Below, in pieces: positions 29,360-57,945 of a stretch of 64,000 nt of DNA. Positions within the stretch are counted from its first letter, which is position 1, and each line of letters opens with the position of its first letter. Source of the DNA: Bacteroidota bacterium (GTDB taxonomy: Bacteria > CLD3 > SB21); the NCBI GenBank assembly GCA_037445875.1, contig JBBIJR010000001.1:4429-68428 (forward strand), given 5' to 3'. The notes below the pieces were generated by a model. The model was not told where the DNA came from. It made no database searches and saw nothing but the letters and a program-made list of their open reading frames with translations. A program made the translations under genes and the position numbers.

Positions 29360-30508
29360 TTGGCTCACGGCTTGAATTCAATCATCACAGGCCTGATCGT
29401 GTTCATTGCTTGCTCGACACAAAGCCAGACGCCCGTGGGCATCGAAAACGCTTTTCCAGGCCTCACCTTCACCAGACCGGTGTTCCTCACCTGTGCGCCG
29501 GATGGTACCGACAGGTTGTTCGTAGTGGAACAGACCGGACGCATCCTCGTGTTCGCCAATGAAACCGGAGCATCGTCAACCGGGAAGTTCCTCGACATCG
29601 GCGAGTCCTTGAGCAGCGACGGAGGAGAAGAGGGATTGCTGGGACTGGCGTTCCATCCGCAGTATGCGTCCAACGGCTATTTCTTCGTGAACTACACCGC
29701 GCCCAATCCGCGGCGGACCGTTGTGGCCAGGTTTCGGGTCGATGGGACAGACCCCGATCGCGCGGACCCTTCGAGCGAAGTGCGGATCATCGAGATCTTC
29801 CAGCCGTATGCCAACCACAACGGAGGGATGATTTTTTTCGGCGCCGACGGCTATCTGTACATCGGGATGGGCGACGGCGGCAGCGCGGGCGATCCAGCCA
29901 ATCGCGCCCAGAACCTCGACAGCCTTCTCGGAAAGATCCTGCGCATCGATGTGAACAGTACTACGGACAGCACGGCGTACGGTATTCCGCCAGACAATCC
30001 TCTGATCGGGACCGGCCACCGGCTCGAGATCTTCGCCTGGGGCATTCGCAATCCGTGGCGCATGAGCCAGGACGCCGACGGCCGGATCTGGATGGGCGAC
30101 GTCGGCCAGAATGCATGGGAGGAAATCGCGATCGTGGACAAAGGGCAGAATCACGGATGGAGGATCATGGAAGGCCTTCATTGTTATCAGCCGAGCTCCG
30201 GCTGCGATACGGGCGGACTCACGCTGCCTCTGGTTGAATACAGCCACGGTTCCGGCAATTGTTCCGTGACCGGCGGCTACGTGTACCGGGGAAGTCGGCG
30301 ACCGGACCTGTCCGGCGCGTACCTGTACGGCGACTGGTGTACGGGCCATCTGCGCATGCTCGTATACCGGAACGGAGCGGTCGTCCGGGATTCGCTGCTC
30401 CTGGACACGCCCTTGATGATCTCCTCGTTCGGCGAAGACCGAGAGGGGGAACTCTACATGCTCGATTACCTTGGCGGCACCGTCTGGCGCCTGGTTCCGG
30501 AAAATTGA
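29360..30508 (+). CDS. PQQ-dependent sugar dehydrogenase (soluble glucose/sorbosone dehydrogenase, YliI-like six-bladed beta-propeller)
   Basis: Signal peptide, then the hallmark segments FVVEQTGRILVF, GLLGLAFHPQYASNGYFFVNYT, HNGGMIFFGADGYLYIGMGDGG and WGIRNPWRMSQD. Confidence 0.75.
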   Translation: MAHGLNSIITGLIVFIACSTQSQTPVGIENAFPGLTFTRPVFLTCAPDGTDRLFVVEQTGRILVFANETGASSTGKFLDIGESLSSDGGEEGLLGLAFHPQYASNGYFFVNYTAPNPRRTVVARFRVDGTDPDRADPSSEVRIIEIFQPYANHNGGMIFFGADGYLYIGMGDGGSAGDPANRAQNLDSLLGKILRIDVNSTTDSTAYGIPPDNPLIGTGHRLEIFAWGIRNPWRMSQDADGRIWMGDVGQNAWEEIAIVDKGQNHGWRIMEGLHCYQPSSGCDTGGLTLPLVEYSHGSGNCSVTGGYVYRGSRRPDLSGAYLYGDWCTGHLRMLVYRNGAVVRDSLLLDTPLMISSFGEDREGELYMLDYLGGTVWRLVPEN

Positions 30509-30520
30509 CAAAGGAGGACT

Positions 30521-32569
30521 ATGTTTCGCATCAACATCATAGCCGGCGCGGCGATGTGGGTCCTTGCCTCAACGGTCCCTGTCGAAGCGCAGTATTCCCT
30601 GCAATCGGCGTTCCCCAATTTGTCCGCGTTCACGAGACCGATTGAATTGGTTCATGCCGGAGACGGCACCAATCGATTTTTCCTGGTCGAGCAGGACGGA
30701 CGAATCTGGGTGTTCGAGAACAGCGCGTCGACCATGATACGCCGGCTGTTCCTCGACCTCAGCGATTCGGTCTCCCAGGGCGGCAGCGAGACGGGTTTGC
30801 TGGGGCTCGCCTTTCATCCGGATTATGAGAACAACGGGTACTTCTACGTGAACTACACCCGCACCGCCGGATCGCTGAAAAGCTACATCACCCGTTTTCA
30901 AGTCAGTTCATCCAATCCCGATTCGGCGGACGAGAGCAGCGGTCTGATCCTGATCGTGCAGAACCAGCCCTATTCGAACCACAACGGCGGCAAGGTCGCC
31001 TTTGGTCTCGATGGGTACCTGTACATCGCCCTGGGCGACGGCGGCAGCAGCGGCGATCCGCAGGGCAACGGCCAGAACCGCTCCACGATCCTAGGCAAGA
31101 TTCTGCGCATCGACGTCGACGACACTTCCGGCGGCCGCAACTATGCCATTCCGCCGACGAACCCGTACTATCAGAACACCGAGGGATTCCGCGAGGAGAT
31201 CTATTCGTACGGCATGCGCAACCCATGGAAATTCAGCTTCGATCCTCTGACGGGCCGCCTGTGGTGCGCGGACGTGGGACAAAGCAGCCGCGAAGAAGTC
31301 GATATCATCGACAACGGAGGCAACTACGGTTGGAACAAGATGGAGGGCTTTCTTTGTTATCCCAGTTCCTCGTGCGACACGGCGGGGCACGGTTTTCTGC
31401 GGCCGGTCTGGGATTATCCTCGGTCGCAGGGTCTTTCGGTGACGGGCGGTTACGTCTATCGCGGAACGGCCATACCGAACCTGGTACACAAGTACGTGTA
31501 CGGCGACTACGGGAGCGGCCGCATCTGGGCCCTCTCATTCAACGGGACGTCGTTCACCAATACGGAACTTCTCGACTCGCCTTACTCGATCAGTTCGTTT
31601 GGCGTCGACACGGCGGGCACAATCTATATTGTTTCGTACGGCACGGGCGTGATCTATAAGCTGACGGGCTCTTCGAGCGGGCTTACACTCCTCTCGCCGA
31701 ACGACGGTGAATCCTACGATCCCGGGGGCCAACTCGATATTCAGTGGCTCGCGACCGGACCGGCCAATATCGATTTGTTCTTCAAATCCGCTCCCGGCGC
31801 TGCGTGGGACACCATAGCCGCGAACGTGAATGCGGCCGATGGTTCGTACAGCTGGACGGTCCCGTCGTACGCGACGAACAAAGCGCGGATCCGCGCGTCG
31901 GAGAGCGGCGGCGCCTTGACGGACAGCAGCGATGGGTATTTTACAATTCGTCTCGCGTTGATCGCCGCATCGCGTTCGTCAATTGATTTGGACACCGTGT
32001 TCACTTCGGATATCGGGCTCGATACGCTGACGATCTGGAATCCGGGTACGGCGGAACTCGTGATCGACAGCCTACGTACCCGGACGGCGGTGTTTACGGC
32101 GACTCGAGATAGCTTTACTCTCGCCGCGTCTTCGTCCGATACGATTTCGGTAGTGTGTTCCTCATCCCAGTTGGGAGAATTCACCGACACGTTGACGATT
32201 TTCCATCGAGGCGACGGACCTTCGCTCGAGATTCCTCTGCACGTCGTATTCGTGCAGAATCCCAATTCGATCGGCGGCGGCACAAAGCCGCTCAAGTTCG
32301 TCCTGTATCCGAATCGCCCGAATCCCTTTAACAATTCCACAGTCATCAGTTACCAATTATCAGGGAATACAAGAGCCGTTCTGCGGATTTACAACCTGCT
32401 CGGGCAAGAGGTGCGCACACTGGTGAACGGGCAACAAACGGCCGGGCATCACGAAGTGTCGTGGGACGGACGGGACAATTTCGGCAGGACGGTCGCGTCG
32501 GGTGTGTATCTGTACCGGCTGGAAGCAGGCGGGCAGGTCAGGACGAAGAAGCTTGTTCTTTTGAAGTAG
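30521..32569 (+). CDS. PQQ-dependent sugar dehydrogenase paralog with a C-terminal Ser/Thr-rich Ig-like region and a T9SS C-terminal sorting domain
   Basis: Same GSDH hallmark segments (FLVEQDGRIWVF, GLLGLAFHPDYENNGYFYVNYT, HNGGKVAFGLDGYLYIALGDGG). The protein ends ...YPNRPNPFNNSTVISYQL...RIYNLLGQEVRTLVNG...GVYLYRLEAGGQVRTKKLVLLK (Por secretion tail). Confidence 0.75.
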   Translation: MFRINIIAGAAMWVLASTVPVEAQYSLQSAFPNLSAFTRPIELVHAGDGTNRFFLVEQDGRIWVFENSASTMIRRLFLDLSDSVSQGGSETGLLGLAFHPDYENNGYFYVNYTRTAGSLKSYITRFQVSSSNPDSADESSGLILIVQNQPYSNHNGGKVAFGLDGYLYIALGDGGSSGDPQGNGQNRSTILGKILRIDVDDTSGGRNYAIPPTNPYYQNTEGFREEIYSYGMRNPWKFSFDPLTGRLWCADVGQSSREEVDIIDNGGNYGWNKMEGFLCYPSSSCDTAGHGFLRPVWDYPRSQGLSVTGGYVYRGTAIPNLVHKYVYGDYGSGRIWALSFNGTSFTNTELLDSPYSISSFGVDTAGTIYIVSYGTGVIYKLTGSSSGLTLLSPNDGESYDPGGQLDIQWLATGPANIDLFFKSAPGAAWDTIAANVNAADGSYSWTVPSYATNKARIRASESGGALTDSSDGYFTIRLALIAASRSSIDLDTVFTSDIGLDTLTIWNPGTAELVIDSLRTRTAVFTATRDSFTLAASSSDTISVVCSSSQLGEFTDTLTIFHRGDGPSLEIPLHVVFVQNPNSIGGGTKPLKFVLYPNRPNPFNNSTVISYQLSGNTRAVLRIYNLLGQEVRTLVNGQQTAGHHEVSWDGRDNFGRTVASGVYLYRLEAGGQVRTKKLVLLK

Positions 32570-38752: not shown

Positions 38753-38896
38753 GAAAGTCCTTTCTGTTTGCCGGTTGGAATACTAACGCTGCTGCCGCTG
38801 CAATCATTCCCGGCAGAAAAACTCTTGCAATTATTCATGATGTGGACGAAATTAGACTTCGAATTCCTTTCTCGCCACCCGGCCTTTCACATCGTC

Positions 38897-41056
38897 ATGG
38901 ATGATACGGTAAAAATCGAACGCCTGGGTCGCTTCAAAGTTATCGGCACGCTGGGACAGGGCGCGATGGGCATCGTCTACAAGGCCGTGGACGAGGTCAT
39001 CGACCGCACCGTGGCCATCAAGACCCTGCGCCTCGGCCATGACCTGAGCGAAGCGCAGATCGCCGAGTTCAAGCACCGGTTTCGTCTGGAGGCGCAACTC
39101 GCAGGCAAATTATCGCACCCCAACGTGGTGACGATCTACGACGTAGGGGAAGCGGGGGACCTGTCGTACATCGCCATGGAATTCGTCGACGGCAAGACCC
39201 TCGAGTACCTGATCGCCCACCAGCCGCCCAACTGGGAATCGCTTCAATCCATCGAATTCATGATGGAGGTGATGCTGCAGACCTGCGACGGACTGAACTT
39301 CGCCCACGAGCAGAACGTCACCCATCGGGACATCAAGCCCGCTAACATCATCATCTCGAAGAACGGCCATGTCAAGATCATGGATTTCGGCATTGCGAAG
39401 ATCTCCTCTTCCACGGGAACGGCCGTTGGGACGATCATCGGCACGCCGGGGTACATGTCGCCCGAGCAGATCGCGGGGCGTACCGTGGACGAACGCAGCG
39501 ATATTTTCTCGCTGGGTACCGTGTTCTACGAGCTGCTGACCGGAAAAAAGGCCTTCACCGGCAACAACATCACCGAGGTCATGTACAAGGTGATGAACGA
39601 GAACCCGACGCCCGTGCAGGTCGTCAACCCGCTGATCCCGCCGGTCTTCGACAACATCATCAGCCGGAGCCTGCGGCGCAACGCGGACGAACGCTACCGC
39701 AGCGTGGACCTCATGGCGCGGGACATCCGGAAGATCAAGCAGACGATCCAGCTTTCACGAACGATCTACGTGGACGGCGACCTCGTCGGTCCGCACGACA
39801 CCGTGCCGTTCTTACAGCGGCTCGGCATCAAGGACCTGAGGAAAGTGATCCTCGGACTCTCTGCCTACGGACTGCTCATGACGGTGCTGATGGTCGTTGC
39901 GTTCTGGACGGGGGGCGGCCGGTTCGACCGCATTGCCCGCTCCCTGACCAGCGTGCAGCCCGCCTCGATGAGGCTCGCGGTCAACGTTCCCGATGCGGAG
40001 ATCTTTCTCGACGACACCCGCCTGGCCAATCGCGGCGGGGCCGTACGGCTCGACACGGTCACCGTGGGTGAACACAAGCTGACCATCCGGCGCGAGGGAT
40101 ACGAGACGTACCAGACCGCGCTGGTATTCGGTGTGGGAGAGTCCAAGGACGTGAACGCCACTCTCCTGCTGGCGCCCTCCGAGATTCCGGCCAACGTCGA
40201 CACTTCGTATCTTACCGTGACGAGCGATCCCCCGATGGGCCGCGTGGAAACCAGCACCGGCCGCTTCGTCGGTTACACCCCCTTCGAGGAGCACATGTTC
40301 CCGGGGGGCAAGTATACTCTGCTGATCCACCGCCCGGACCACTTTACCTCCAAACGGGACGTCTCGCTGCGGCGCAACCGTGTTTCGTCCATCGATGTCC
40401 GTCTCGAGAAACACAAGGGTACCGTCTCTCTTGATGGCCTCCAGCCCGCCGGCGCTTCGTTGTTCGTGCACAACCGTGCCTTGCCGCGCACGGGCCGAGG
40501 AAATGCGTACCGTATCAGCGTGGGGGAACAGGTAGTGACCGTGAAGGCGGACGGTTACGTGCCCCTGGAAAAGAAGCTCACGATCGTGCGGGACAGCACC
40601 ATCGTGCTCACGGATTCCCTCAGTCCGACGTTCGGGATGCTGTGGGTGAAGTCGAACCCATCCGGTGCGGAGGTCTTCTTGAACGGGACGGATCGGTCGG
40701 TCGGTCGGACACCGTTGCTGGCCGGCCCACTGGTGGCCCACGGGCACACGGTCAAACTCAGCCTGAGGAGTGAATCACGATCCAGGCAGGTGCGGGTAGT
40801 ACAAAACGATACGACGGAAGTGCTGGTCACTTTTTCGCGTCCGAACGGATACCTCGACGTCGTGACCGAACCGCCCGGCGCGACCCTCTTCATCAACACC
40901 ATCCGCGAGCGCGATTTCCAGTCGCCGGGTTTGCTGGAAATCAAGCCGGGGTGGTACAAGATCCGTCTCTCGCATCCTAACTATCGCAAGTTCTACGAAA
41001 CCACCGTGAAAGTTCGACCGGAACAGGTTGTCAAAATAATCCACCGGTTCGAATAG
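38897..41056 (+). CDS. Serine/threonine protein kinase with TM segment and C-terminal PEGA domains
   Basis: Hanks kinase motifs GTLGQGAMGIVYKA, VAIK, HRDIKPANI, DFGIA and GTPGYMSPE, then a TM helix, then repeated PEGA-like modules (..GYETYQTALV.., ..PDHFTSKRDVSL.., ..PNYRKFYETTVKV..). Confidence 0.8.
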   Translation: MDDTVKIERLGRFKVIGTLGQGAMGIVYKAVDEVIDRTVAIKTLRLGHDLSEAQIAEFKHRFRLEAQLAGKLSHPNVVTIYDVGEAGDLSYIAMEFVDGKTLEYLIAHQPPNWESLQSIEFMMEVMLQTCDGLNFAHEQNVTHRDIKPANIIISKNGHVKIMDFGIAKISSSTGTAVGTIIGTPGYMSPEQIAGRTVDERSDIFSLGTVFYELLTGKKAFTGNNITEVMYKVMNENPTPVQVVNPLIPPVFDNIISRSLRRNADERYRSVDLMARDIRKIKQTIQLSRTIYVDGDLVGPHDTVPFLQRLGIKDLRKVILGLSAYGLLMTVLMVVAFWTGGGRFDRIARSLTSVQPASMRLAVNVPDAEIFLDDTRLANRGGAVRLDTVTVGEHKLTIRREGYETYQTALVFGVGESKDVNATLLLAPSEIPANVDTSYLTVTSDPPMGRVETSTGRFVGYTPFEEHMFPGGKYTLLIHRPDHFTSKRDVSLRRNRVSSIDVRLEKHKGTVSLDGLQPAGASLFVHNRALPRTGRGNAYRISVGEQVVTVKADGYVPLEKKLTIVRDSTIVLTDSLSPTFGMLWVKSNPSGAEVFLNGTDRSVGRTPLLAGPLVAHGHTVKLSLRSESRSRQVRVVQNDTTEVLVTFSRPNGYLDVVTEPPGATLFINTIRERDFQSPGLLEIKPGWYKIRLSHPNYRKFYETTVKVRPEQVVKIIHRFE

Positions 41057-46474: not shown

Positions 46475-47446
46475 ATGATATTTCGCATCCTTGCCGTGGT
46501 CGTCTGGTCCGTGATGACGGTCACCGTGAGCACCGCCGCCGCCTTTCTCGAAAGCGGCCGGCTGGACTGGCTGAACTATCTTCTGACCCTGGCCATCGCC
46601 TCGACGGTGCAGGGGTTCCCCGCTCACATCGTGAACGAGATCATGGACTGGCAGACCGGGGCCGACCGCTTCAGGAAACTCGGAGAAAAATCGGGCGGCA
46701 GCAAGGTGCTCAAGGCGGGCCTGGCCACGGTGCCTCAACTGTGGTGGATGTTCGGGGTTACGTCGCTGATCGGTTTCCTGCTGATCGCACTGCTGTACTT
46801 CCGGACGGGTCCGGCGGTGATAGTTTTTTTTGCCGTCGGATATTTTGTGAGTTTGTTTTATACCTTGCCTCCTTTCCGTTTCTCTTACCGGCCGTTCGCC
46901 GGTGAGTGGCTCGGCGGATTCCCCGGCGTTGTGCTCACTATCACGGGGACGTATTATGTGCAGACCGGCCGTATTTCCGCGCGGGCGCTGTTTCTCGCTG
47001 TCTGGATCGGCCTCGTATACGTATCGATCATGGTCCTTTTTCACTATCTTGACTACGAAGGCGACCGGCAAGCCAGACCGATGAAACGCACCACGATTGT
47101 CTTTCTCGGTCTGCGGCGGAGCAAGCGGTACGTCCTGGCTCTTCTCCTTCTCGCGGGCGTCCTGTCGACGGCTCAGGCGTGGAAATCGCCGCCGCTCTAC
47201 TGGCTGATGCCCTTGTCGGTTGCGGTCTATGGGATCATCCACCTTCGATGCGACCCGTCCTCTGCGGAATCGGTTGTGCGACAGGGACGCCTGTTGACCT
47301 ACGCCGTCATGGCCTTCTCGTTGGCCTTTTCCGTGACGGCCGAACCGCGGCTCGCCGTGGCCGGACTGATGACCCTGGCGGCGTTCTATTTGCACAAGAA
47401 GTTTGGTAAACTCCGGAGCCTTAAACCGGCAAAGGAACCTTCGTGA
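46475..47446 (+). CDS. UbiA-superfamily prenyltransferase-like membrane protein (atypical first Asp-rich motif)
   Basis: Eight or nine TM helices. The second motif YLDYEGDRQA (DxxxD) is present. The first motif is NEIMDWQTGAD rather than the canonical NDxxDxxxD. Its 3' 108 nt are duplicated at 50478-50585. Confidence 0.7.
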   Translation: MIFRILAVVVWSVMTVTVSTAAAFLESGRLDWLNYLLTLAIASTVQGFPAHIVNEIMDWQTGADRFRKLGEKSGGSKVLKAGLATVPQLWWMFGVTSLIGFLLIALLYFRTGPAVIVFFAVGYFVSLFYTLPPFRFSYRPFAGEWLGGFPGVVLTITGTYYVQTGRISARALFLAVWIGLVYVSIMVLFHYLDYEGDRQARPMKRTTIVFLGLRRSKRYVLALLLLAGVLSTAQAWKSPPLYWLMPLSVAVYGIIHLRCDPSSAESVVRQGRLLTYAVMAFSLAFSVTAEPRLAVAGLMTLAAFYLHKKFGKLRSLKPAKEPS

Positions 47447-47491
47447 AATTCGAATACTCCGAGTGGCAGGCGGATCTCATCAAGCAGAACA
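47339..47491. repeat. Direct repeat copy 1 (153 bp, ~97% identical to 50478..50630)
   Basis: Aligned by eye: gccgaaccgcggctcgccgtggccgga...aaaggaaccttcgtgaaattcgaatactccgagtggc.ggcggatctcatcaagcagaaca, with 5 mismatches over 153 bp. It spans the UbiA gene 3' end plus the first ~48 nt of a vWA-gene CDS. Confidence 0.8.
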
Positions 47492-47548
47492 ATTCGGCGA
47501 TCCGCCCTCCCCTATCGACTTGATGGCAACGATCAGCGGGTTGGACGG
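47449..47548 (+). pseudogene. Relic of a vWA-domain gene: the first 14 codons of the 50582 gene joined out of frame to a diverged internal segment
   Basis: 47449-47491 matches 50582-50630 (VKFEYSEWQADLIKQN). 47492-47540 then matches 50969-51020 at ~83% (caattcggcgatcc...gatggc.acgatcagc). The intervening 338 nt are missing, which is not a multiple of 3, and a stop follows. Confidence 0.55.
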
Positions 47549-47569: not shown

Positions 47570-49492
47570 TCATCGGACCAAGGCCATCTTTATCGTTCGC
47601 GTCTGTCGTCCGACCCGCAGGCGGCAGAAGTAAACCCCGCTGGCCAAGGCGCGGCCCGAACGGTCGCGACCGTCCCAGACCACGACGTGCGGTCCGGCAT
47701 TCTGGGTATCGCTTACGAGCGTCGAGACATGCTGTCCCAATGCGTTGTAGATGGACAGCGTCACAGGGCCGGCCATCGAAAGATCATAATGAATGCGCGT
47801 AGTGGGATTGAACGGATTCGGGAAATTCTGGTGCAGGCTGAAGAGCCAAAGGCGTCCCGTCTCGCGGCCGACGGACACTGGTTGGGTTGTCCACTCGGCT
47901 TGTTCCATCAAATGTCCATAGTGAGGTGGGAGGATGTCCTCGAGCGGCCGTCCGTAGCCGTCCAGGGTCCACGCTTTGGCATCGACGACCGCGCGGAACG
48001 CGCGGCGGTAGATCAGCCGGGCTCGGACGCGATAGGACTGCGATGAATCCGGGATCGAAAACGTATAGGTCGTGGTGTCGGAAGCGAACGGCGCAATTCG
48101 ATCGTCGGATACGATACCCGTCGCGTCGGTGTAAAAGACGGGGCTCGCGCCCGTGGAATCGTGATTGATTTTGCCGTAGAATTTACCGGGAAGACCGGCA
48201 TAATACCCAAGATGTGGATCGCCAACGCCGCCGAGCGGGTGAACGGTTTGAGATCCTGTGAACACGAGCGCCGTCGAATCCGTTTCACGCCACGCCTCAA
48301 CGAGCAGGATCATGTTGCGGAAAGTTACTCCGGTCGGCACATGGTGTCCCGTCGCATGGTTGGTGATGACCCCTTCCACGCGGAGCGTCGTATCGTCCTT
48401 TTCGACGTGAAGGTCCAGCGTGACGGCATTTTCCAGGTACCACGCCGTCGTACCTTCGAACCAATGACTGCGAATCGTCGATGAATCGCGAACGACCGGG
48501 TCAACCGTGCAGATTTGGGTCGCACCGTAGGAGGGCATATGGCACGTCACACACGTGGCGAAGTGGGCGGAGGACGTGTCGGCGTAGGGACTTGCCAGCC
48601 ATTCCAGGTACGTGGGCTCGGAAATGACACCGTTGGGTTCTTCAAAATCACCGTCATCGTCCGGATCGTTCTTGTCTTGATGACACGACGCGCATACGGC
48701 GGCCGTGAGCTGGGGTTGGTACGAAGGACGCATTAATGGCGCGGTAAAGTAACTGACGTCTCCGAGCACCCCATATTGGACCTGGCTAGAAACGGGAGAT
48801 GGTCGGGTAAAGGTGACGACGCCCGGATAGATGCCGGGAAAATTTGTTCTGGTTTCATCTATGTGCGCGATCTTGTGGCATACCTCGCAGGACACGCCGG
48901 CGAGCGCATTGGCGGAAGGACTGTTGAAATCGTCGAGCAGCGTGAAAGGATCGTCAATCCAGACCTGCGGCTGATGGCAGGACGCACATTCGGAATTTGG
49001 ATTGATGCTCGCATGGTGGGAGTCCCGTGTATAGACAAAACCTCCCATGCCGCCCGATGTGCCGGTACCGTTATAGATGTCGTACACCCATGTATTCAAC
49101 CCGGCATGAGCCATGGCGGATGTGGTCCATTGACTCCATTGATCCGGGTGACAGGCGCCGCACGTCGATGGATCCATGAACGTGTAGGAATTGTTGGTAT
49201 CCTGGGGGACACGTTCCATCACAAGGAGCAAACTGTCTTCAGGTGTGCTGGTTATGGCAGAGCCATTGTAAAAGGCCGGTTTGGCCCCGACGACAACAAG
49301 AGAGGTCCCGCTCGCCTCGGCCAGATGGAAATATCCGTTGGAGTCGGTGGTCGTTCGAATCGTGGTGGCCCGAACAGAAACCAAGGCGCCGACCACAGGG
49401 CTCATATTGCCCTCTTCTTTCAACCAGCCCGATACCTGGGCAAAAACCGACGATGGCCATAGAGTCAATACCAGCATGAACCGAAGACTCAT
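47570..49492 (-). CDS. T9SS-sorted multiheme (pentaheme) c-type cytochrome with N-terminal carboxypeptidase-regulatory-like domain
   Basis: Signal peptide MSLRFMLVLTLWPSSVFAQ. Five CxxCH motifs: CGACH, CASCH, CEVCH, CASCH, CVTCH. C-terminal Por secretion tail (NFPNPFNPTTRIHYDL...LSIYNALGQHVSTL...GVYFCRLRVGRQTRTIKMALVR). Confidence 0.75.
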   Translation of the reverse strand: MSLRFMLVLTLWPSSVFAQVSGWLKEEGNMSPVVGALVSVRATTIRTTTDSNGYFHLAEASGTSLVVVGAKPAFYNGSAITSTPEDSLLLVMERVPQDTNNSYTFMDPSTCGACHPDQWSQWTTSAMAHAGLNTWVYDIYNGTGTSGGMGGFVYTRDSHHASINPNSECASCHQPQVWIDDPFTLLDDFNSPSANALAGVSCEVCHKIAHIDETRTNFPGIYPGVVTFTRPSPVSSQVQYGVLGDVSYFTAPLMRPSYQPQLTAAVCASCHQDKNDPDDDGDFEEPNGVISEPTYLEWLASPYADTSSAHFATCVTCHMPSYGATQICTVDPVVRDSSTIRSHWFEGTTAWYLENAVTLDLHVEKDDTTLRVEGVITNHATGHHVPTGVTFRNMILLVEAWRETDSTALVFTGSQTVHPLGGVGDPHLGYYAGLPGKFYGKINHDSTGASPVFYTDATGIVSDDRIAPFASDTTTYTFSIPDSSQSYRVRARLIYRRAFRAVVDAKAWTLDGYGRPLEDILPPHYGHLMEQAEWTTQPVSVGRETGRLWLFSLHQNFPNPFNPTTRIHYDLSMAGPVTLSIYNALGQHVSTLVSDTQNAGPHVVVWDGRDRSGRALASGVYFCRLRVGRQTRTIKMALVR

Positions 49493-50477
49493 GTCAATCT
49501 CCCGGATTGGATGCCGATGCGTACAGTTTGCCCGTGGACGAATCGCCAATACGTCTGTACATCCCTATTCCTTCGGGCCGCACGTCATGGTTTCACATGG
49601 TTGATCGCTGCGTTACTCGTCCCAAAACCGATCCATCTCCTCGAGGGTCGAATCCTTCATTTCGCGGTTCATCTCCGGCTCGTTTTCTCTCCGCACACCG
49701 CCCGGAGGAAGGAAATGTCCGTCACGTCTTTCATGGGCGCGAGACACAGCGGAGTGTCGATGTCAATCGGGCCGATGCGCAAGGAATTAGCATACGGAAA
49801 TAGCGGCTGAATATCAACACGCACAGGGACGGATCGAGCAAAGAAAAGTCCCGGCCTTACGCCCGATGGCCTCATCAACCAGCGCCGGCCTTGTCAGGTT
49901 GCCCTTGCCTTTGCATGGGCCTTTTCCTATTTTCTCCCAAGGGAGAGATACCGGAAGAAACACGCAGCCGGTGTCCTCTTATCTTTGGATTCACACCGGC
50001 CGGTATCCTTCCACGGAATAGAGCCTTCTTCTTAAGGAGGCCCGTGATAAAACGGGTGAAAACATCGCTGGCGATCTGCTCGTCGTCTTGTCGTGTGATA
50101 TGGTTTCGATTGCCGCACGGTCAACGTGATCGAAGGAATCGTCGTTCGCGCGTATTCGTATCTTCCCGTCGCTTGCGCGCGCGTGCGCATCCAGGGCTAA
50201 AATGAATTCGTGCTGACCGTCACGGATGGGCACTTCACGCTCGTCACCGACCTCGACCATGGAACGAACGTCAAGATGACGGCAGGCAACACCCAACTGA
50301 CCGACCAGTGGCGCGAGTCCAAACACTCCCGGGCCGTCTCTAATCCGATATTCCTGCAGATCTACAACGGCACGGACGTCAACGGCACGTCAGGGGTGTA
50401 TCCGATCCTGTGGAGGAAACCGGCGACAACATCATCGTCAACAACAGCGACGGCCATTGCGCCTTTTATTTGCTGCC

Positions 50478-50630
50478 GCCGAACCGCGGCTCGCCGTGGC
50501 CGGACCGATGACCCTGGCGGCGTTCTGTTTGCACAAGAAGTTTGATAAACTCCGGAGCCTCAAACCGGCAAAGGAACCTTCGTGAAATTCGAATACTCCG
50601 AGTGGCGGGCGGATCTCATCAAGCAGAACA
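50478..50630. repeat. Direct repeat copy 2 (153 bp), covering the start of the intact vWA gene
   Basis: See copy 1. The flanks differ on both sides (47330-47338 vs 50469-50477; 47492 onward vs 50631 onward). Confidence 0.8.
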
Positions 50631-51676
50631 TGAAGTTCGAGGATCTGCTCAACTTGTTCAACCAGCTGTTGCTGTACACCAACGGCGATGTGGCCGAGGC
50701 CCTTCGATGGATGACGGAACTCGACAAGCACCATCACATTTTCTCCGGCGAAATGGGCTTCGACGAGTTTTACCAGCGACTGAAGGACGAGGGTTACATC
50801 CGGGAAGAATCACCGGACCGGCCGGTGCTGACACCCAGGGGTGAAAAGAAGATCCGGCAGGACTCGCTGGACGAGATCTTCTCTTCGCTGAAGAAATCGC
50901 CGCACGGACTGCACGAAACGCCGCATACGGGCAAGGGCGTCGAGCGTCTGAGCGAAACAAAACCGTACCAATTCGGCGATCCCCCTTCGAATATCGACCT
51001 GATGGCCACGATCAGCAACGCGATGAAACACAGTACGTACGACGAGATCGATCTGCGCGAGGACGATTTTGAGGTATACGAAAGCGAGCACCTCACGTCC
51101 TGTGCGACCGTCCTGGCGATCGACACCAGCCACAGCATGGTGTTGTACGGCGAGGATCGTATCACGCCGGCCAAGAAGGTCGCGCTCGCGCTGGTGGAAC
51201 TCATCCTGAGCCGGTATCCGAAGGACAGTCTCGATGTGATCACCTTCGGAGACGACGCTCAGCCCATCGACCCGGAGGACATCCCGTACATCGAGGTCGG
51301 CCCCTTTCACACCAACACCAAAGCGGGGTTGCGTCTCGCGCGCCAGCTCCTGCGAAAGCGGCGCAACCGCAACCGGCAGATCTTCATGATCACCGACGGA
51401 AAACCGTCCTGTATATGGGAAGAGGGCCGTCTCTACAAGAACCCCTTCGGGCTCGACCGAAAGATCATCAACCAGACCCTCCAGGAGGCCGCCCAGTGCC
51501 GCAAGGACGAAGTCGTGATTTCTACGTTCATGATCGCGGATGATCCTTCCTTGACGCGCTTTGTGGACACTTTGACCAAAGTCAACAAGGGGCGCGCCTT
51601 CTACGCAGGCCTCAGCGAACTGGGCCAGTACATTTTTGTGGACTACATACGGAACCGGCGGAAGAATCTGAGGTAA
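50582..51676 (+). CDS. von Willebrand factor A (vWA) domain protein, CoxE/ChlD-like
   Basis: MIDAS motif LAIDTSHSM with downstream T and D residues (ITDGKPS). GTG start preceded by aaaggaacc; alternative ATG at 50630. Confidence 0.75.
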   Translation: MKFEYSEWRADLIKQNMKFEDLLNLFNQLLLYTNGDVAEALRWMTELDKHHHIFSGEMGFDEFYQRLKDEGYIREESPDRPVLTPRGEKKIRQDSLDEIFSSLKKSPHGLHETPHTGKGVERLSETKPYQFGDPPSNIDLMATISNAMKHSTYDEIDLREDDFEVYESEHLTSCATVLAIDTSHSMVLYGEDRITPAKKVALALVELILSRYPKDSLDVITFGDDAQPIDPEDIPYIEVGPFHTNTKAGLRLARQLLRKRRNRNRQIFMITDGKPSCIWEEGRLYKNPFGLDRKIINQTLQEAAQCRKDEVVISTFMIADDPSLTRFVDTLTKVNKGRAFYAGLSELGQYIFVDYIRNRRKNLR

Positions 51677-54028: not shown

Positions 54029-55792
54029 ATGAAAGCCCTCTGTGCGTTGTTTCTGCTGAGTGTGACGCCCATCTACGCCGCCTTCGGTCAATGGGTAACG
54101 GGCGGGCCCGATGGGGCCACGGTGAACTGTGTGACTATCGATGGTTCGAATGTCTTTGTGGGAACGGCCACCACCGGGCCATTTCGGTCCACGAATGGCG
54201 GCTCGGCCTGGACGGCCGCCAATCAAGGAATCGGAGACGTGTACGTCTACGCGATCCTGATAGACGGGAGCAACGCGTTCGCCGCTACCAACGACGGCGC
54301 GTATCTGTCCACCGATGACGGGGTAACCTGGATCGGAATCAACAACGGCCTGACCAACCAGTTCGTCAACGCCATCGCTCTCAGCGGTCCCGTGCTCTAT
54401 GCCGGAACCAACGCTGGCGTGTTCAAATCCACCGACAACGGTTCTAGTTGGACGGAAATCAACAACGGACTAACCAATACGTTGGTAAACGCCGTCGCCG
54501 TCACCGGTCCAACGGTCTTCGCAGGAACAAGCGGCGGCGCATTTATCTCCACCAATGAAGGATCCACGTGGGTGGAGTCGGACAGCGGGTTGACCGCCGT
54601 GTATGTGACGGCGTTCACCGTGAGCGGATCCAACGTCTACGCGGGAACGTTCGACGGCGGTGTCTTCGTTTCTACAAACGGCGGAATCAGTTGGAGTCCT
54701 TCCAACGCGGGACTGACGTCCACCAGCGTACTATCGTTGGCTTCCGAAGGATCTACCGTCGTGGCCGGGACGAGCACGAGCGGCGCCTTTCTATCGACGG
54801 ACAATGGCGCCAACTGGAATGCCATCACCAACGGACTCACAACGCCCGATGTTCGTGGTATCGACTTAAACGGCTCGACCCTCGTTGCCGGCACGACTGG
54901 AGGAGTGTTCGTTTCAACCAACGGAGGGTCTAGCTGGCAAGTCTCGAATGGCGGGCTGGTGGGCACGATTGTTTGGGCCATGGCAACCGAGGGTTCGACT
55001 CTATTCGTGGGCACGCAGGCGTATGGTATCTCCGTTTCTTCCAATGACGGATTGAGCTGGACGACAGCTAACAACGGTCTCTCGAGTCCCACCGTTCGGT
55101 CGTTCACCGTGAATCCATCCGGCGTCTTTGCCGGAACTCAAGATGCCGGTGTTTACCGTTCTACCGACGCCGGGGCAACCTGGTTTGCTGCCAACGGCGG
55201 AATCACAAGCTCCGGTGTCATCGCCCTGACGACCAGCGGCTCGAATCTGTTTGCCGGGTCGAACACGGGGGCTTATCGGTCCACCGATAACGGTGCCAAC
55301 TGGACCGCGGTCAACTCGGGATTAACGGATACATACGTCACTTCACTGCTCTCGACAGGATCAACCGTTCTGGCAGGAACCCAGAGCGGCGGAGTGTTCC
55401 GAACGACCGATAACGGCGCGAATTGGATCGATGCCAACAACGGGCTGACCTATCCGGCCATTCGCACGCTGGCGGTGAACGGTCCAATCGTGTACGTCGG
55501 AACGCAAGGCGGCATCTTCACGTCGACCGATGAGGGAGTTAGCTGGAATCTGCTTTCGTATGTGACGAACGTTAACAGCTTTGCTTTTTCAGGGACGGCC
55601 ATCCTGGCGGCTGTCGGCGGTTATGGAATGCTCCTCTCCACGGACGGCGGAGCCAATTGGGATTTCATAAACGAAGGTCTGCCGACTTGCGGGTCCTGTC
55701 CGCTGCGGTATTTTTGCACTTTCAGCAACAACGCGCGAAGAATCCGGCGCTTCGTATTACGGAATCATGGAACTGTCGGGAAATGTGGGTGA
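54029..55792 (+). CDS. Secreted BNR/Ycf48-like repeat beta-propeller protein
   Basis: aaggag RBS, signal peptide, and ~13 tandem ~40-aa repeats of the form (F.STD.G.SW...N.GLT...V..L...G....AGT..G). The ORF leaves this pattern after ...FINEGLPT and ends in non-protein-like sequence, suggesting a frame disruption near 55680-55767. Confidence 0.6.
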   Translation: MKALCALFLLSVTPIYAAFGQWVTGGPDGATVNCVTIDGSNVFVGTATTGPFRSTNGGSAWTAANQGIGDVYVYAILIDGSNAFAATNDGAYLSTDDGVTWIGINNGLTNQFVNAIALSGPVLYAGTNAGVFKSTDNGSSWTEINNGLTNTLVNAVAVTGPTVFAGTSGGAFISTNEGSTWVESDSGLTAVYVTAFTVSGSNVYAGTFDGGVFVSTNGGISWSPSNAGLTSTSVLSLASEGSTVVAGTSTSGAFLSTDNGANWNAITNGLTTPDVRGIDLNGSTLVAGTTGGVFVSTNGGSSWQVSNGGLVGTIVWAMATEGSTLFVGTQAYGISVSSNDGLSWTTANNGLSSPTVRSFTVNPSGVFAGTQDAGVYRSTDAGATWFAANGGITSSGVIALTTSGSNLFAGSNTGAYRSTDNGANWTAVNSGLTDTYVTSLLSTGSTVLAGTQSGGVFRTTDNGANWIDANNGLTYPAIRTLAVNGPIVYVGTQGGIFTSTDEGVSWNLLSYVTNVNSFAFSGTAILAAVGGYGMLLSTDGGANWDFINEGLPTCGSCPLRYFCTFSNNARRIRRFVLRNHGTVGKCG

Positions 55793-56060: not shown

Positions 56061-57945
56061 GTGCGCACGTCCGTGAAGGCTATCCGACCGGTCTGGATTT
56101 GGGCGATTGCGCTCCCGACGGTGGTCTGGATCGGACAGGATCTTCAGAGTCAAGTCCGATACGCGACTTCAGTTACTAGCTTCAGTTCCGAGTACAACGC
56201 TTCGCCCGGTAACTGGTCCGCTTACCAGACAGTCGGCGCGCCCAACACATACCCGTCCTATGGCGACCTCAGTACGGCCTGGGCCAGCCTGACCGCCGAC
56301 GGTCAGCGGGAGTTCCTCGAGTTGAGCTACGCCTTCCCTCCGCCTTCCCCGATCACAACCATTCGAATCTACGAGACCTTCAATCCGGGTGCGGTGGATA
56401 CCGTCTACGTGAAGAACCCGGGGACCGGACAGTGGGTGAAAGTGTGGGAAGGTACGGCCAGTCCGGCCCCCGCAGCGGCCAGGATCTTCACCGTGAATTT
56501 TCCGGTAACTGCTTTCAACGTGGGGCAGATCCGCATTGCTCTGAATTCTCCGGCCGTTGCCGGCTGGAACGAAATCGATGCCGTCGGAATCTCGAACGAT
56601 ACCGATCCCACGAAATATCACGGAGGCGCGTACGATGGACACGACGATATCATTGCATCTTTTTCCAACCTGGACGGCGTTTCCCCTGCATCGGCAAAAT
56701 TCCTGGGGGGGGTCGTTCGACGGCTTCTCGGAGGTATCGTCGGCGTTTGGCGCACTCGACGGGACAGCCCCGTCCGCCGCGAAGTTCATCGGTGGATCCT
56801 ATGACGGACAGGACGAGGAAGTGGGCGCTTTTGCGTCGCTGGACGGTATTCCGCCCAACATCGTCAAATTCCGCGGTGGTTCCCATGACGGCCATGCGCT
56901 GCTCTCCGGCAGTCTGTCGGGCTTCAATGGCGGCACTCCTTCCGCTTCCAAATTCCACGGCGGCTCCTACGATGGCCATTCTCAGATCGCCTCTCGCGGG
57001 CTGGGATTCAACGGCGACACGGCAAGTCTGGCCAAGTTCTACGGAGGACCTCATGACGGCTTCGCCCATCTGGCTTCTGCGTTCGGAAATCTGATGGGTG
57101 TGTCGCCGACCCTGTCGAAGTACGTGGGTGGCTACGATGACGGATACACATTGTCTACTTCCGGACTGACGTACTTTGCAGGACCACCCGATCCGTCCAA
57201 GTACCTCGGCGGCATCGATGACGGCTACGCGCAGTTGGTCGGCCCGTTCTCCAATTTCGCCGGCCTGTCACCCTCGATAACCAAGTACGCGGGTGGTCCG
57301 GGGGACGGCTACGGGTTCGAATTCTCCGAAATCGACATTTCGCTGCCGGTGGAACTGGCGTCCTTTCAAGTAGCGGTCATACCCGGGCGCGGCGTCGTGA
57401 GACTCCAATGGCGCACGGAATCGGAAATCGACAACGCATACTGGTTGGTCATGCGGCGAACGGCTTCGGACTCTCTCCGCACCGTCACCCAACTTCGCGG
57501 CATGGGCACGAAAGCGTCGTCAACCGAATACGAGTGGACGGACCGTGAACTGGAACTCGACACACTGTATTACTACCGCCTGGCTGATGTTTCGTATAAC
57601 GGCTCGATCACGCACCATGACGAACTGGCCGTACGTGTGGACGCTCCGGACGAGGTAGAGCTGTTCGGCAACTTCCCCAATCCATTCAATCCCGAAACGT
57701 CCATCCGGTTTGCCCTTCCGCGGAAAGCCGAAGTCTATCTCGTTGTTTACAATTCTCTGGGCCAGCAGGTGAAGGTCCTCTCGAGTCGGAGCTTCTCCGC
57801 AGGGTTCCATACCCTTCGCTGGGACGGCACCAACGAGTCCGGCCGATTCGTGTCGAGCGGTGTGTACCTCTATCGCTTGCTGATCCGATTGTCCGATCCC
57901 CCACAGCGCCGGATCCGCACCGGCCGTATGATGCTCGTACGTTGA
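56061..57945 (+). CDS. T9SS-sorted surface protein with an N-terminal discoidin-like domain and ~9 tandem 28-aa K(F/Y)xGGxxDG repeats, interrupted by a +1 frameshift at a poly-G tract
   Basis: ORFs 56061..56804 and 56557..57945 carry the same repeat family in two frames (KYHGGAYDGHDD..., KFIGGSYDGQDE..., KFRGGSHDGHAL..., KFHGGSYDGHSQ...). The frames meet exactly at the G8 run 56705-56712; 7 or 10 G would restore one ORF. C-terminal Por secretion tail (GNFPNPFNPETSIRFAL...VVYNSLGQQVKVL...GVYLYRL). Confidence 0.65.
56705..56712 (+). repeat. Homopolymeric G8 tract inside a coding repeat
   Basis: Read directly as ttcctgggggggg tcg. It encodes the Gly-Gly of a repeat unit and is the site of the frame change. 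Confidence 0.9.

Follow-up and report, generated by a model that had tools for sequence, protein, structure and literature searches.

A pentaheme cytochrome with a type IX secretion sorting domain: a possible relay for extracellular oxidoreductases

What might a compact cytochrome with five hemes do at the outer surface of a bacterium, and from which donor might it take its electrons? This question is raised by a gene on the minus strand at 47570-49492 of a stretch of Bacteroidota DNA of 64,000 nucleotides (the whole stretch is called the window below), whose product ends in a sorting domain of the type IX secretion system (T9SS). Multiheme cytochromes of the cell surface are known mainly from Shewanella and Geobacter, where they leave the cell by other export routes and form the ends of respiratory wires. 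The protein described here, the target, is a compact five-heme module with a T9SS tail and comes from a very large unnamed family. It had been described in the first-pass annotation as an outer-surface redox protein engaged in extracellular electron transfer (EET). The surface location is reasonable in view of the tails carried by the family, whereas respiratory EET was left without partners. The reading that we prefer, and to which we give an even chance, is that the protein is a secreted electron relay for extracellular oxidoreductases, delivered by the T9SS.

The target gene encodes a protein of 640 aa, and its stop codon occupies 47570-47572. The open reading frame (ORF) extends from a TTG at 49549 down to 47570, so that the ATG at 49492 is internal to it. 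This ATG opens MSLRFMLVLTLWPSSVFA↓QV and is preceded, 6 nt upstream, by GGGAG; a database protein (P0001, 640 aa) is identical to the target and starts at the same ATG. The N-terminus reads as a Sec-type signal peptide, with a basic residue, a hydrophobic core, a predicted VFA↓Q junction and no lipobox cysteine. In the AlphaFold2 model this region has a low predicted local distance difference test score (pLDDT) and a short helix at residues 4-7.

Five CxxCH motifs are present, at residues 111, 169, 202, 267 and 314. They take up 10 of the 12 cysteines of the protein, and 0.009 CxxCH motifs would be expected from its own composition. Two alignments were used, one of 60 relatives (the tight family) and one of 49 distant members of the superfamily. 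All five motifs are invariant in both, which confirms the heme sites as they were first located. The conserved cysteines all lie inside these motifs; C328 lies outside them and is variable. The multiheme assignment was also upheld by profile search, in which Cytochrome_C7 and Cytochrome_C554 scored above their Pfam thresholds. In the AlphaFold2 model, which was built on the 60 relatives (mean pLDDT 89.3), the CxxCH-bearing region is well modelled (pLDDT 84-93) and not disordered. No model in Pfam or NCBIfam describes the pentaheme core; the family is unnamed and has no studied member.

Evidence for export is found at the C-terminus. The NCBIfam model of the T9SS type A sorting domain (TIGR04183) matched residues 557-636 with 35.6 bits against a cut-off of 23, and the tail noticed at first reading is therefore retained, though the Pfam model Por_Secre_tail (PF18962) alone fails (20.7 bits versus 27). 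FlgD_ig passes (41 bits versus 27). The tail is modelled as seven strands (residues 551-638) at the extreme C-terminus behind a disordered linker, and Foldseek matched it to the Ig domains of PorU and FlgD. The linker would be the expected cleavage region for the C-terminal domain. Over about 100 aa, the tail is 47-52% identical to the ends of two unrelated window proteins, namely a GSDH-family dehydrogenase (30521-32569) and the product of 56557-57945. No component of the T9SS machinery was matched among the roughly 30 window ORFs scanned in the 64 kb. The organism is an uncultured member of the Fibrobacterota-Chlorobiota-Bacteroidota (FCB) group; among named sequences, those closest to its MetRS (Candidatus Kryptonia, Calditrichota and KSB1) reach no more than 58% identity.

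The same core occurs elsewhere with other tails. A word-indexed search returned at least 891 relatives, the best 120 of which are 49-71% identical to the target, and an exhaustive search with the core only gave 1082 clusters at 50% identity (E ≤ 1e-3), 135 of them with E ≤ 1e-30. Relatives were found in Gemmatimonadota, Eisenbacteria, Latescibacterota, Ignavibacteriota, Planctomycetota, Myxococcota, Binatia and Acidobacteriota. Across phyla the core is about 55% identical, and more than 90 residues are invariant among the 60 sequences. All source-named relatives and all fetched genome loci come from uncultured organisms, and the names given at source are 'hypothetical protein' or 'T9SS type A sorting domain-containing protein'. 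G-H-L-M-E marks the end of the conserved core in these best 120 relatives, and behind it comes a lineage-dependent tail: a T9SS domain in 63, dockerin-like repeats in at least 7, PEP-CTERM-like and MYXO-CTERM-like tails in 3 each, an IPTL-CTERM-like tail in 2, a 143-aa domain in 16, a 340-aa domain in 11, and no tail in 5. The tags other than T9SS are named '-like' because the curated models score just below their cut-offs (PEP-CTERM 14.6 versus 16, IPTL-CTERM 19.3 versus 20.5, MYXO-CTERM 16.7 versus 20, GC-dockerin 24.4 versus 29). Tail types are intermingled in a neighbour-joining tree built from the core. One core thus appears to have been given host-specific surface-sorting tails, and this is good comparative evidence in support of work at or beyond the outer membrane.

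A possible donor is suggested by the fusions and neighbours of the core in other organisms. The survey of genomic context covered 78 genome loci and 11 metagenome loci. One protein of 1996 aa (P0136), found on two independent contigs, consists of GSDH (a family of pyrroloquinoline quinone (PQQ)-type sugar dehydrogenases), PKD, CarboxypepD_reg, the pentaheme core, Laminin_G, TIG, two CBM96 domains and a T9SS tail. Its core shares 47% identity with target residues 20-530, and the GSDH domain shares 28% with the tail-bearing GSDH protein of the window (30521-32569). Its neighbours are more T9SS cargo, including a CBM96-lysyl-oxidase-like protein. In a second case, an ORF of 1828 aa at locus L050, GSDH is followed by DUF1349, the core and cadherin-like domains, and here the GSDH part is 36% identical to that of 30521-32569. 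The core is also fused to BACON and a Kelch (galactose-oxidase-like) propeller in P0130, to a T9SS-associated galactose-binding-like domain in P0134, and in further proteins to Sortilin/BNR, YNCE-like or PD40 propellers or to CCP_MauG. Besides the fusions, GSDH/AA12-like genes directly adjoin T9SS-type orthologues at L084 (on both sides), L085, L088 and L016, and the neighbour at L088 has a T9SS tail of its own.

Following established T9SS and cytochrome c biology, the precursor would be exported by Sec, the hemes would be attached in the periplasm, and the folded holoprotein would then pass the T9SS and lose its tail, the mature protein being kept on the cell surface or released from it. Judged by the fusions and neighbours of its relatives, the cytochrome would serve there as a relay for secreted beta-propeller oxidoreductases and not as the end of a respiratory wire. 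The likeliest donors would be PQQ-type sugar dehydrogenases of the GSDH/AA12-like kind, one of which carries the same tail in the window. Electrons would be passed on to an extracellular acceptor, which might be O2, a metal, a copper enzyme or humic material. The relay is preferred because the fusions, which occur within the tight family, are the most direct functional linkage, because the halves of the T9SS-tagged fusion match two T9SS-tagged proteins of the window, and because there is precedent in fungi and in Cellvibrio.

Several observations weigh against this preference. GSDH adjacency was seen at 4 of about 21 T9SS-type loci with usable flanks, and neighbourhoods of nitrate/nitric oxide (NO) or respiratory genes are at least as frequent. 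In the present organism 15 kb separate the cytochrome gene from the GSDH genes, which are on the opposite strand, so there is no operon link between them. The closest solved or characterised relatives, c552 of Thermochromatium tepidum and MccSep of Geobacter sulfurreducens, are periplasmic, and a NapH/NosR-like protein of the inner membrane would be a more natural neighbour for a periplasmic protein than for one at the surface. Conservation this strong, with a His-rich stem, is seen more typically in the active site of an enzyme than in a simple electron carrier, and the PQQ dependence of the GSDH proteins is putative. The relay was given no more than an even chance because the nitrate/NO theme is at least as frequent, because of the Fer4_5 neighbour and the conservation, and because nothing in the window links the two proteins beyond co-residence and the tail.

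A wider picture may be drawn, which we regard as somewhat unlikely. In the FCB group and allied bacteria (Gemmatimonadota, Eisenbacteria, Latescibacterota, Ignavibacteriota) there would be an extracellular redox chain made up entirely of T9SS cargo, leading from GSDH/AA12-like and other propellers through the pentaheme protein to an outside acceptor; in other phyla the module would have been re-tagged with PEP-CTERM-like, MYXO-CTERM-like, dockerin-like or IPTL-like tails, and in Planctomycetota it would take part in nitrate/NO respiration. If true, this would be a bacterial counterpart, with c-type hemes, of the fungal system of dehydrogenase, cytochrome and lytic polysaccharide monooxygenase (LPMO). 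If the link to dehydrogenases is functional, it would mean an unrecognised extracellular oxidative system in abundant phyla of soil and sediment, and two T9SS-tagged proteins of one genome would offer a way to approach it by experiment.

The fold of the target was compared with solved structures. The best Foldseek match in the PDB was the pentaheme c552 of T. tepidum (5ZE8; E 7e-18, TM score 0.73 on the target, 19% identity). The family profile retrieved the same entry by sequence (E 7e-4), in an alignment that spans the heme 1-3 region and the stem loop. A PDB sequence search with the target alone returned marginal matches only (MccA with E 0.16, and FlgD). MccSep/ExtKL, a periplasmic homotetrameric polysulfide reductase, likewise has a five-heme cap and an Ig-like stem; its stem loop holds a catalytic selenocysteine (Sec325) beside heme 2, which has a Cys ligand, and its heme core is assigned to the NrfA/MccA type (bioRxiv 10.1101/2025.11.18.688581). 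As for the N-terminal domain of the target, the Pfam models CarbopepD_reg_2 and CarboxypepD_reg stay below threshold (26 and 20 bits versus 32). Foldseek matched it to the transthyretin-like domain of carboxypeptidase D (5aq0, TM score 0.79) and to the N-terminal extension (NTE) domain of SusC (9hfj, TM score 0.82), the latter also reached by the family profile (E 6e-4), and the fold of a CarboxypepD_reg-like domain, as proposed earlier, was thereby established.

The stem loop of the target reads G382-H383-H384-V-P386-T-G...R392-N393 (G-H-H-V-P-T-G-V-T-F-R-N). G382, H383, P386 and R392 are invariant in both alignments, H383 being present in 60/60 and 49/49 sequences. In the wider superfamily, conservation among residues that could serve as distal heme ligands is limited to position 127, M254, M319, H343 and H383, which form a candidate set. 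Position 127 is His in 35 of the 49 distant members and Met in 60/60 sequences of the tight family; because Met is found there throughout, a His/Met-ligated heme of higher potential is plausible in the family of the target. The target and its sister of 71% identity alone have Ala198 and Tyr513 (window 48899-48901 and 47954-47956), where His is present in 58/60 and 55/60 relatives, respectively; neither position is conserved in the wider superfamily. Ala198 was considered as a lost heme ligand and rejected, since the position is unconserved in the superfamily and the fusion P0136 also has no His there. An acidic loop after heme 4 (Q-D-K-N-D-P-D-x-D-G-D-F-E-E, residues 272-285, window 48638-48679) hardly varies within the tight family, and most distant members have a gap in its place. 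By its sequence it may be a calcium-binding loop.

The neighbourhoods that count against the relay may point to N-oxide metabolism. The protein might resemble NrfA in being an enzyme for a small molecule (nitrite, NO or hydroxylamine), or it might be an electron hub that links a NapH/NosR-like protein, a Nar-type reductase and qNOR. Among the 78 genome loci, a NapH/NosR-like Fer4_5 membrane protein with TPR repeats recurs in 13, often adjacent and in three phyla, and an Rrf2 regulator in 11; a periplasmic NarG-like molybdoenzyme with cytochrome c/EB_dh, Fer4_11 and NarJ-like genes is found in 7-10, qNOR in 5, hemerythrin in 5 and NnrS-DUF1858 in 4. At L047 (809-21123) these genes look like one operon that runs from Rrf2 to qNOR with the cytochrome within it. 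T9SS-type loci also share in the theme: L004 and L008 are among the Fer4_5-TPR loci, L005 has a Nar-like operon, L007 has Rrf2, L086 has ScdA/hemerythrin, and L089 has NarI, NarK/two MFS transporters and an oxidase. The neighbours at L076, the NrfA/MccA-type heme core and the very high conservation would fit as well. However, a surface-anchored reductase would have no evident electron supply across the outer membrane, and N-oxide genes are absent from the surroundings of both the window copy and the sister of 71% identity. The association is found chiefly in Planctomycetota, and common descent of the gene order may account for part of it; neither Rrf2 nor hemerythrin is specific to NO, and the fusions point elsewhere. 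Neither Pfam nor NCBIfam returned an NrfA model for the target, and all five of its motifs are CxxCH, none CxxCK. A role in N-oxide metabolism is considered unlikely for the target, while the association itself raises the question of missing nitrogen-metabolism steps in Planctomycetota.

It seems improbable that the protein is the terminal outer-surface cytochrome of respiratory EET, taking electrons from the quinone pool by way of periplasm and outer membrane and handing them to minerals, electrodes or partner cells. Surface-sorting tails throughout the family and several hemes would suit such a role, as would the weak, sub-threshold similarities to MtrC/OmcA (PF22113, TIGR03507), the porin-like Alginate_exp downstream in L086 and the place of the related PtdA beside a porin. 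Yet the target gene is the one CxxCH-rich ORF in the 64 kb, and no porin-cytochrome or periplasmic multiheme partner is present in the window or recurs in about 90 loci. Since no such partner recurs, classical mineral respiration is not supported, nor is the earlier proposal of EET to metals, electrodes or partner cells. The core, moreover, is compact and branched and is not a trans-protein wire, its conservation is unlike that of fast-evolving EET cytochromes, and the open-access literature makes no link between the T9SS and multiheme cytochromes. For a periplasmic cytochrome like c552 and MccSep one may cite these characterised relatives themselves, the few tail-less members, the inner-membrane Fer4_5-TPR neighbour and the fact that FlgD_ig is the best Pfam match of the tail while Por_Secre_tail stays below threshold. 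This is nevertheless very improbable: TIGR04183 exceeds its curated cut-off, the tail stands at the extreme C-terminus behind a disordered linker, it is common to unrelated window proteins at 47-52% identity, and other lineages substitute tails that resemble surface-sorting tags, if below cut-off. A polysulfide or sulfur reductase working like MccSep is scarcely credible. The same cap and stem and a remote similarity to NF040886 speak for it, but the score is 27 bits against 250, the loop with Sec325 in MccSep lines up, by model positions, with the loop of the invariant His383 in the target, and no conserved Cys is placed to ligate heme 2.

The cytochrome gene and a 0.9-kb gap without credible ORF lie between two copies of a 153-nt direct repeat of 97% identity (Table 1). 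The flanking genes of the window are housekeeping genes (DUF1223, Ser/Thr kinase, DeoC, XseA, LolA, UbiA, VWA). At the sister locus L079 the orthologue of 71% identity is found in a neighbourhood unlike this one, with Dus, an esterase, TPR and MazG and then PhzF downstream. Because the sister orthologue has unrelated neighbours, there is no conserved operon in this lineage. Upstream of the window copy there are scars of Dus and MazG, on the strand of the cytochrome and in the same order as in L079. This order supports relocation: the cytochrome came from a Dus…MazG-cytochrome locus and was inserted, with deletion, at a duplicated UbiA/VWA junction. The earlier remark that the repeat-bracketed segment may be accessory has thus gained ground from the repeat, the scars of the donor locus and the different neighbourhood of the closest relative, and the window copy as a solitary, accessory, relocated gene is supported. 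No integrase or transposase is present at the segment. Foreign origin by composition was considered and was not shown, as the GC content at third codon positions of the target (0.665) lies at the low end of, and within, the window range (0.58-0.80). The scrap of VWA gene interior next to copy A has diverged more (85%) than the adjoining repeat (97%), and gene conversion of the repeat is one possibility.

Within the gap lies what is left of the 5' part of a second superfamily gene, now decayed. The CarboxypepD_reg domain and the stretch that follows heme 1 are preserved in it; it contains an in-frame stop, and its first CxxCH has been deleted. It comes from a different paralogue, since it has His where the tight family has Met127. 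Expression of the cytochrome gene may start from a promoter-like site close upstream of the Dus scar, although the counts of the promoter and terminator scan were not above those of shuffled sequence. When the upstream region was compared with the sister locus, the ribosome-binding site alone aligned. No meaningful inverted repeats were found in the 0.9-kb upstream gap, and an Rfam scan of the window found nothing. The window copy is an ordinary member of its family; the family is large, unnamed and experimentally approachable.

Table 1. Positions of the cytochrome gene, its parts and associated features in the window
Feature	Position	Strand	Basis
Pentaheme cytochrome gene, 640 aa	47570..49492	−	ORF, identity to P0001, five CxxCH
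Predicted Sec-type signal peptide, residues 1-18	49439..49492	−	Read from sequence
Transthyretin-like (CarboxypepD_reg-fold) beta-sandwich, residues 20-92	49217..49435	−	AlphaFold2 pLDDT 96-98, Foldseek
Five-heme, mostly helical cap, residues about 100-355	48428..49195	−	Pfam cytochrome matches, invariant motifs, 5ZE8 fold match
Ig-like beta-sandwich stem, residues 357-535	47888..48424	−	AlphaFold2 strands, loop alignment to 5ZE8
Flexible linker, residues 536-550	47843..47887	−	pLDDT <50 at residues 539-548
T9SS type-A C-terminal sorting domain, residues 551-640, seven-strand beta-sandwich	47573..47842	−	TIGR04183, FlgD_ig, AlphaFold2
Promoter-like site TTGATA-17-TATGCT, just upstream of Dus scar	49789..49817	−	Consensus scan
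Dus (tRNA-dihydrouridine synthase) scar: N-terminal 30 aa, 77% identical to L079 Dus, then stop	49693..49782	−	tblastn E 1e-8
MazG scar: C-terminal 21 aa, 76% identical to MazG before L079 orthologue	49616..49678	−	tblastn E 2e-5
Decayed 5' remnant of second cytochrome-superfamily gene	50123..50410	+	Superfamily N-terminus profile against six-frame translation, 65 bits, E 4e-19
Direct repeat copy A: true 3' end of UbiA-family gene and first 16 codons of VWA gene	47339..47491	+	Repeat search, alignment
Direct repeat copy B: orphan UbiA 3' fragment and true VWA start (VWA gene 50582-51676)	50478..50630	+	Repeat search, ORF listing
Scrap of VWA gene interior, 48 nt, 85% identical to 50969-51016	47490..47537	+	Repeat search, alignment
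Candidate partner: GSDH (PQQ-type sugar dehydrogenase family) with T9SS tail	30521..32569	+	Pfam GSDH E 9e-46, FlgD_ig, Por_Secre_tail
Tail-less GSDH paralogue	29360-30508	+	Pfam

Some further observations concern the window and the surveyed loci. The two GSDH proteins of the window form a tandem, are 48% identical to each other and have no CxxCH motif; the second alone has Ig-like spacer domains and the T9SS tail. On the plus strand the window also encodes a Sortilin/BNR beta-propeller (54029-55792), a third protein with a T9SS tail (56557-57945) and a Ser/Thr protein kinase (38768-41056) with three PEGA domains and a CarboxypepD_reg-like segment, which is unrelated to the cytochrome. In other organisms, two proteins (P0217 and P0232) join a Sortilin/BNR propeller to the pentaheme core. 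Proteins with FG-GAP/ASPIC-type repeats, several of them T9SS-tailed, adjoin the pentaheme gene at L036, L060, L067, L072, L083, L087 and L090. Beside the GSDH-pentaheme-CBM96 fusion, at L090:14140-16296, a T9SS-tagged protein joins CBM96 to a lysyl-oxidase-like copper amine oxidase domain. This suggests that L090 may be a cluster of secreted oxidative enzymes with a common binding module.

In Planctomycetota and one T9SS-type locus a set of genes is repeated around the pentaheme gene (L047, L029, L034, L048, L075, L076 and L086). It comprises Rrf2, a Nar-like molybdoenzyme operon, hemerythrin/ScdA, a beta-eliminating lyase, Fer4_5-TPR, NnrS-DUF1858 and qNOR. L076 and L071 add cytochrome b and an octaheme HAO-type cytochrome, and L076 also has a qNOR neighbour. 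In two of the 49 distant superfamily members the heme 1 motif is CxxCK instead of CxxCH (column of residue 115), the ligation by which the catalytic heme of NrfA is distinguished.

How, then, does the target stand beside known systems? Its fold (c552, MccSep) is already known, as are multiheme cytochromes at the cell surface. In the open-access literature, by contrast, no joint mention of T9SS or type IX secretion and a multiheme cytochrome was found, 'sorting domain' and 'multiheme cytochrome' occurred together in a review on anaerobic methanotrophic archaea (ANME) only, and no description was found of a fusion of this family to PQQ-type dehydrogenases and carbohydrate-binding modules (CBM). 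With c552 the target shares a five-c-heme N-terminal cap followed by an Ig-like beta-sandwich, and both have a W..S.H segment after heme 1 and an HxxPTGxxxRN stem loop. It differs in that c552, at 19% identity, is soluble and periplasmic and has neither the transthyretin-like N-domain nor a sorting tail, and in that c552 has His after heme 1, where the family of the target has an invariant Met (M127). The cap and stem are likewise those of MccSep, whose stem loop reaches towards heme 2. In the aligned loop, by the positions of the NF040886 (ExtKL) model, the target has the invariant His383, and it has no Cys for heme 2. On that model it scores 27.3 bits against an equivalog cut-off of 250, and most relatives scanned score 12-38 bits, which is weak but collinear. 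With His383 in the loop and no conserved free Cys, the target shares the fold of MccSep but is not MccSep.

The known surface cytochromes are more distant. PtdA belongs to a fixed cluster (ptdABCDEFG) with a porin and with tetra- and decaheme proteins (bioRxiv 10.1101/2023.11.21.568154). No ptd-like cluster was seen around the family of the target, PtdA being compared by description only. MtrC and OmcA resemble the target as surface-displayed multiheme c-type cytochromes; they differ in having ten hemes in a staggered cross and in being wired to MtrAB, and they are lipoproteins exported by the type II secretion system. The models TIGR03507 (19.7 bits versus 209) and PF22113 (26 bits versus 30) both stay below threshold on the target, which with its five hemes is therefore not a member of that group.

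Closer parallels for the relay are offered by secreted systems of carbohydrate oxidation. Gammaproteobacteria, from which the bacterial examples come, are not known to have a T9SS. Cbp2D and Cbp2E of Cellvibrio japonicus and the extracellular redox proteins of Teredinibacter turnerae are secreted multidomain proteins in which a c-type domain serves carbohydrate chemistry outside the cell, and the cytochrome domain of Cbp2D reduces LPMOs (PMC8981238, PMC10916295). These domains are monoheme, have another fold and are not fused to a GSDH partner. In fungi, pyranose dehydrogenase combines AA12 with an AA8 cytochrome b and CBM1, and cellobiose dehydrogenase is a further case (PMC4332668, PMC5960967). 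The association of a secreted PQQ- or flavin-dependent sugar dehydrogenase with a cytochrome and a CBM runs parallel to P0136 and to the L050 ORF. The fungal proteins, however, have one b-type heme in an unrelated fold and belong to eukaryotes, whereas the target has five c-type hemes and a T9SS tail.

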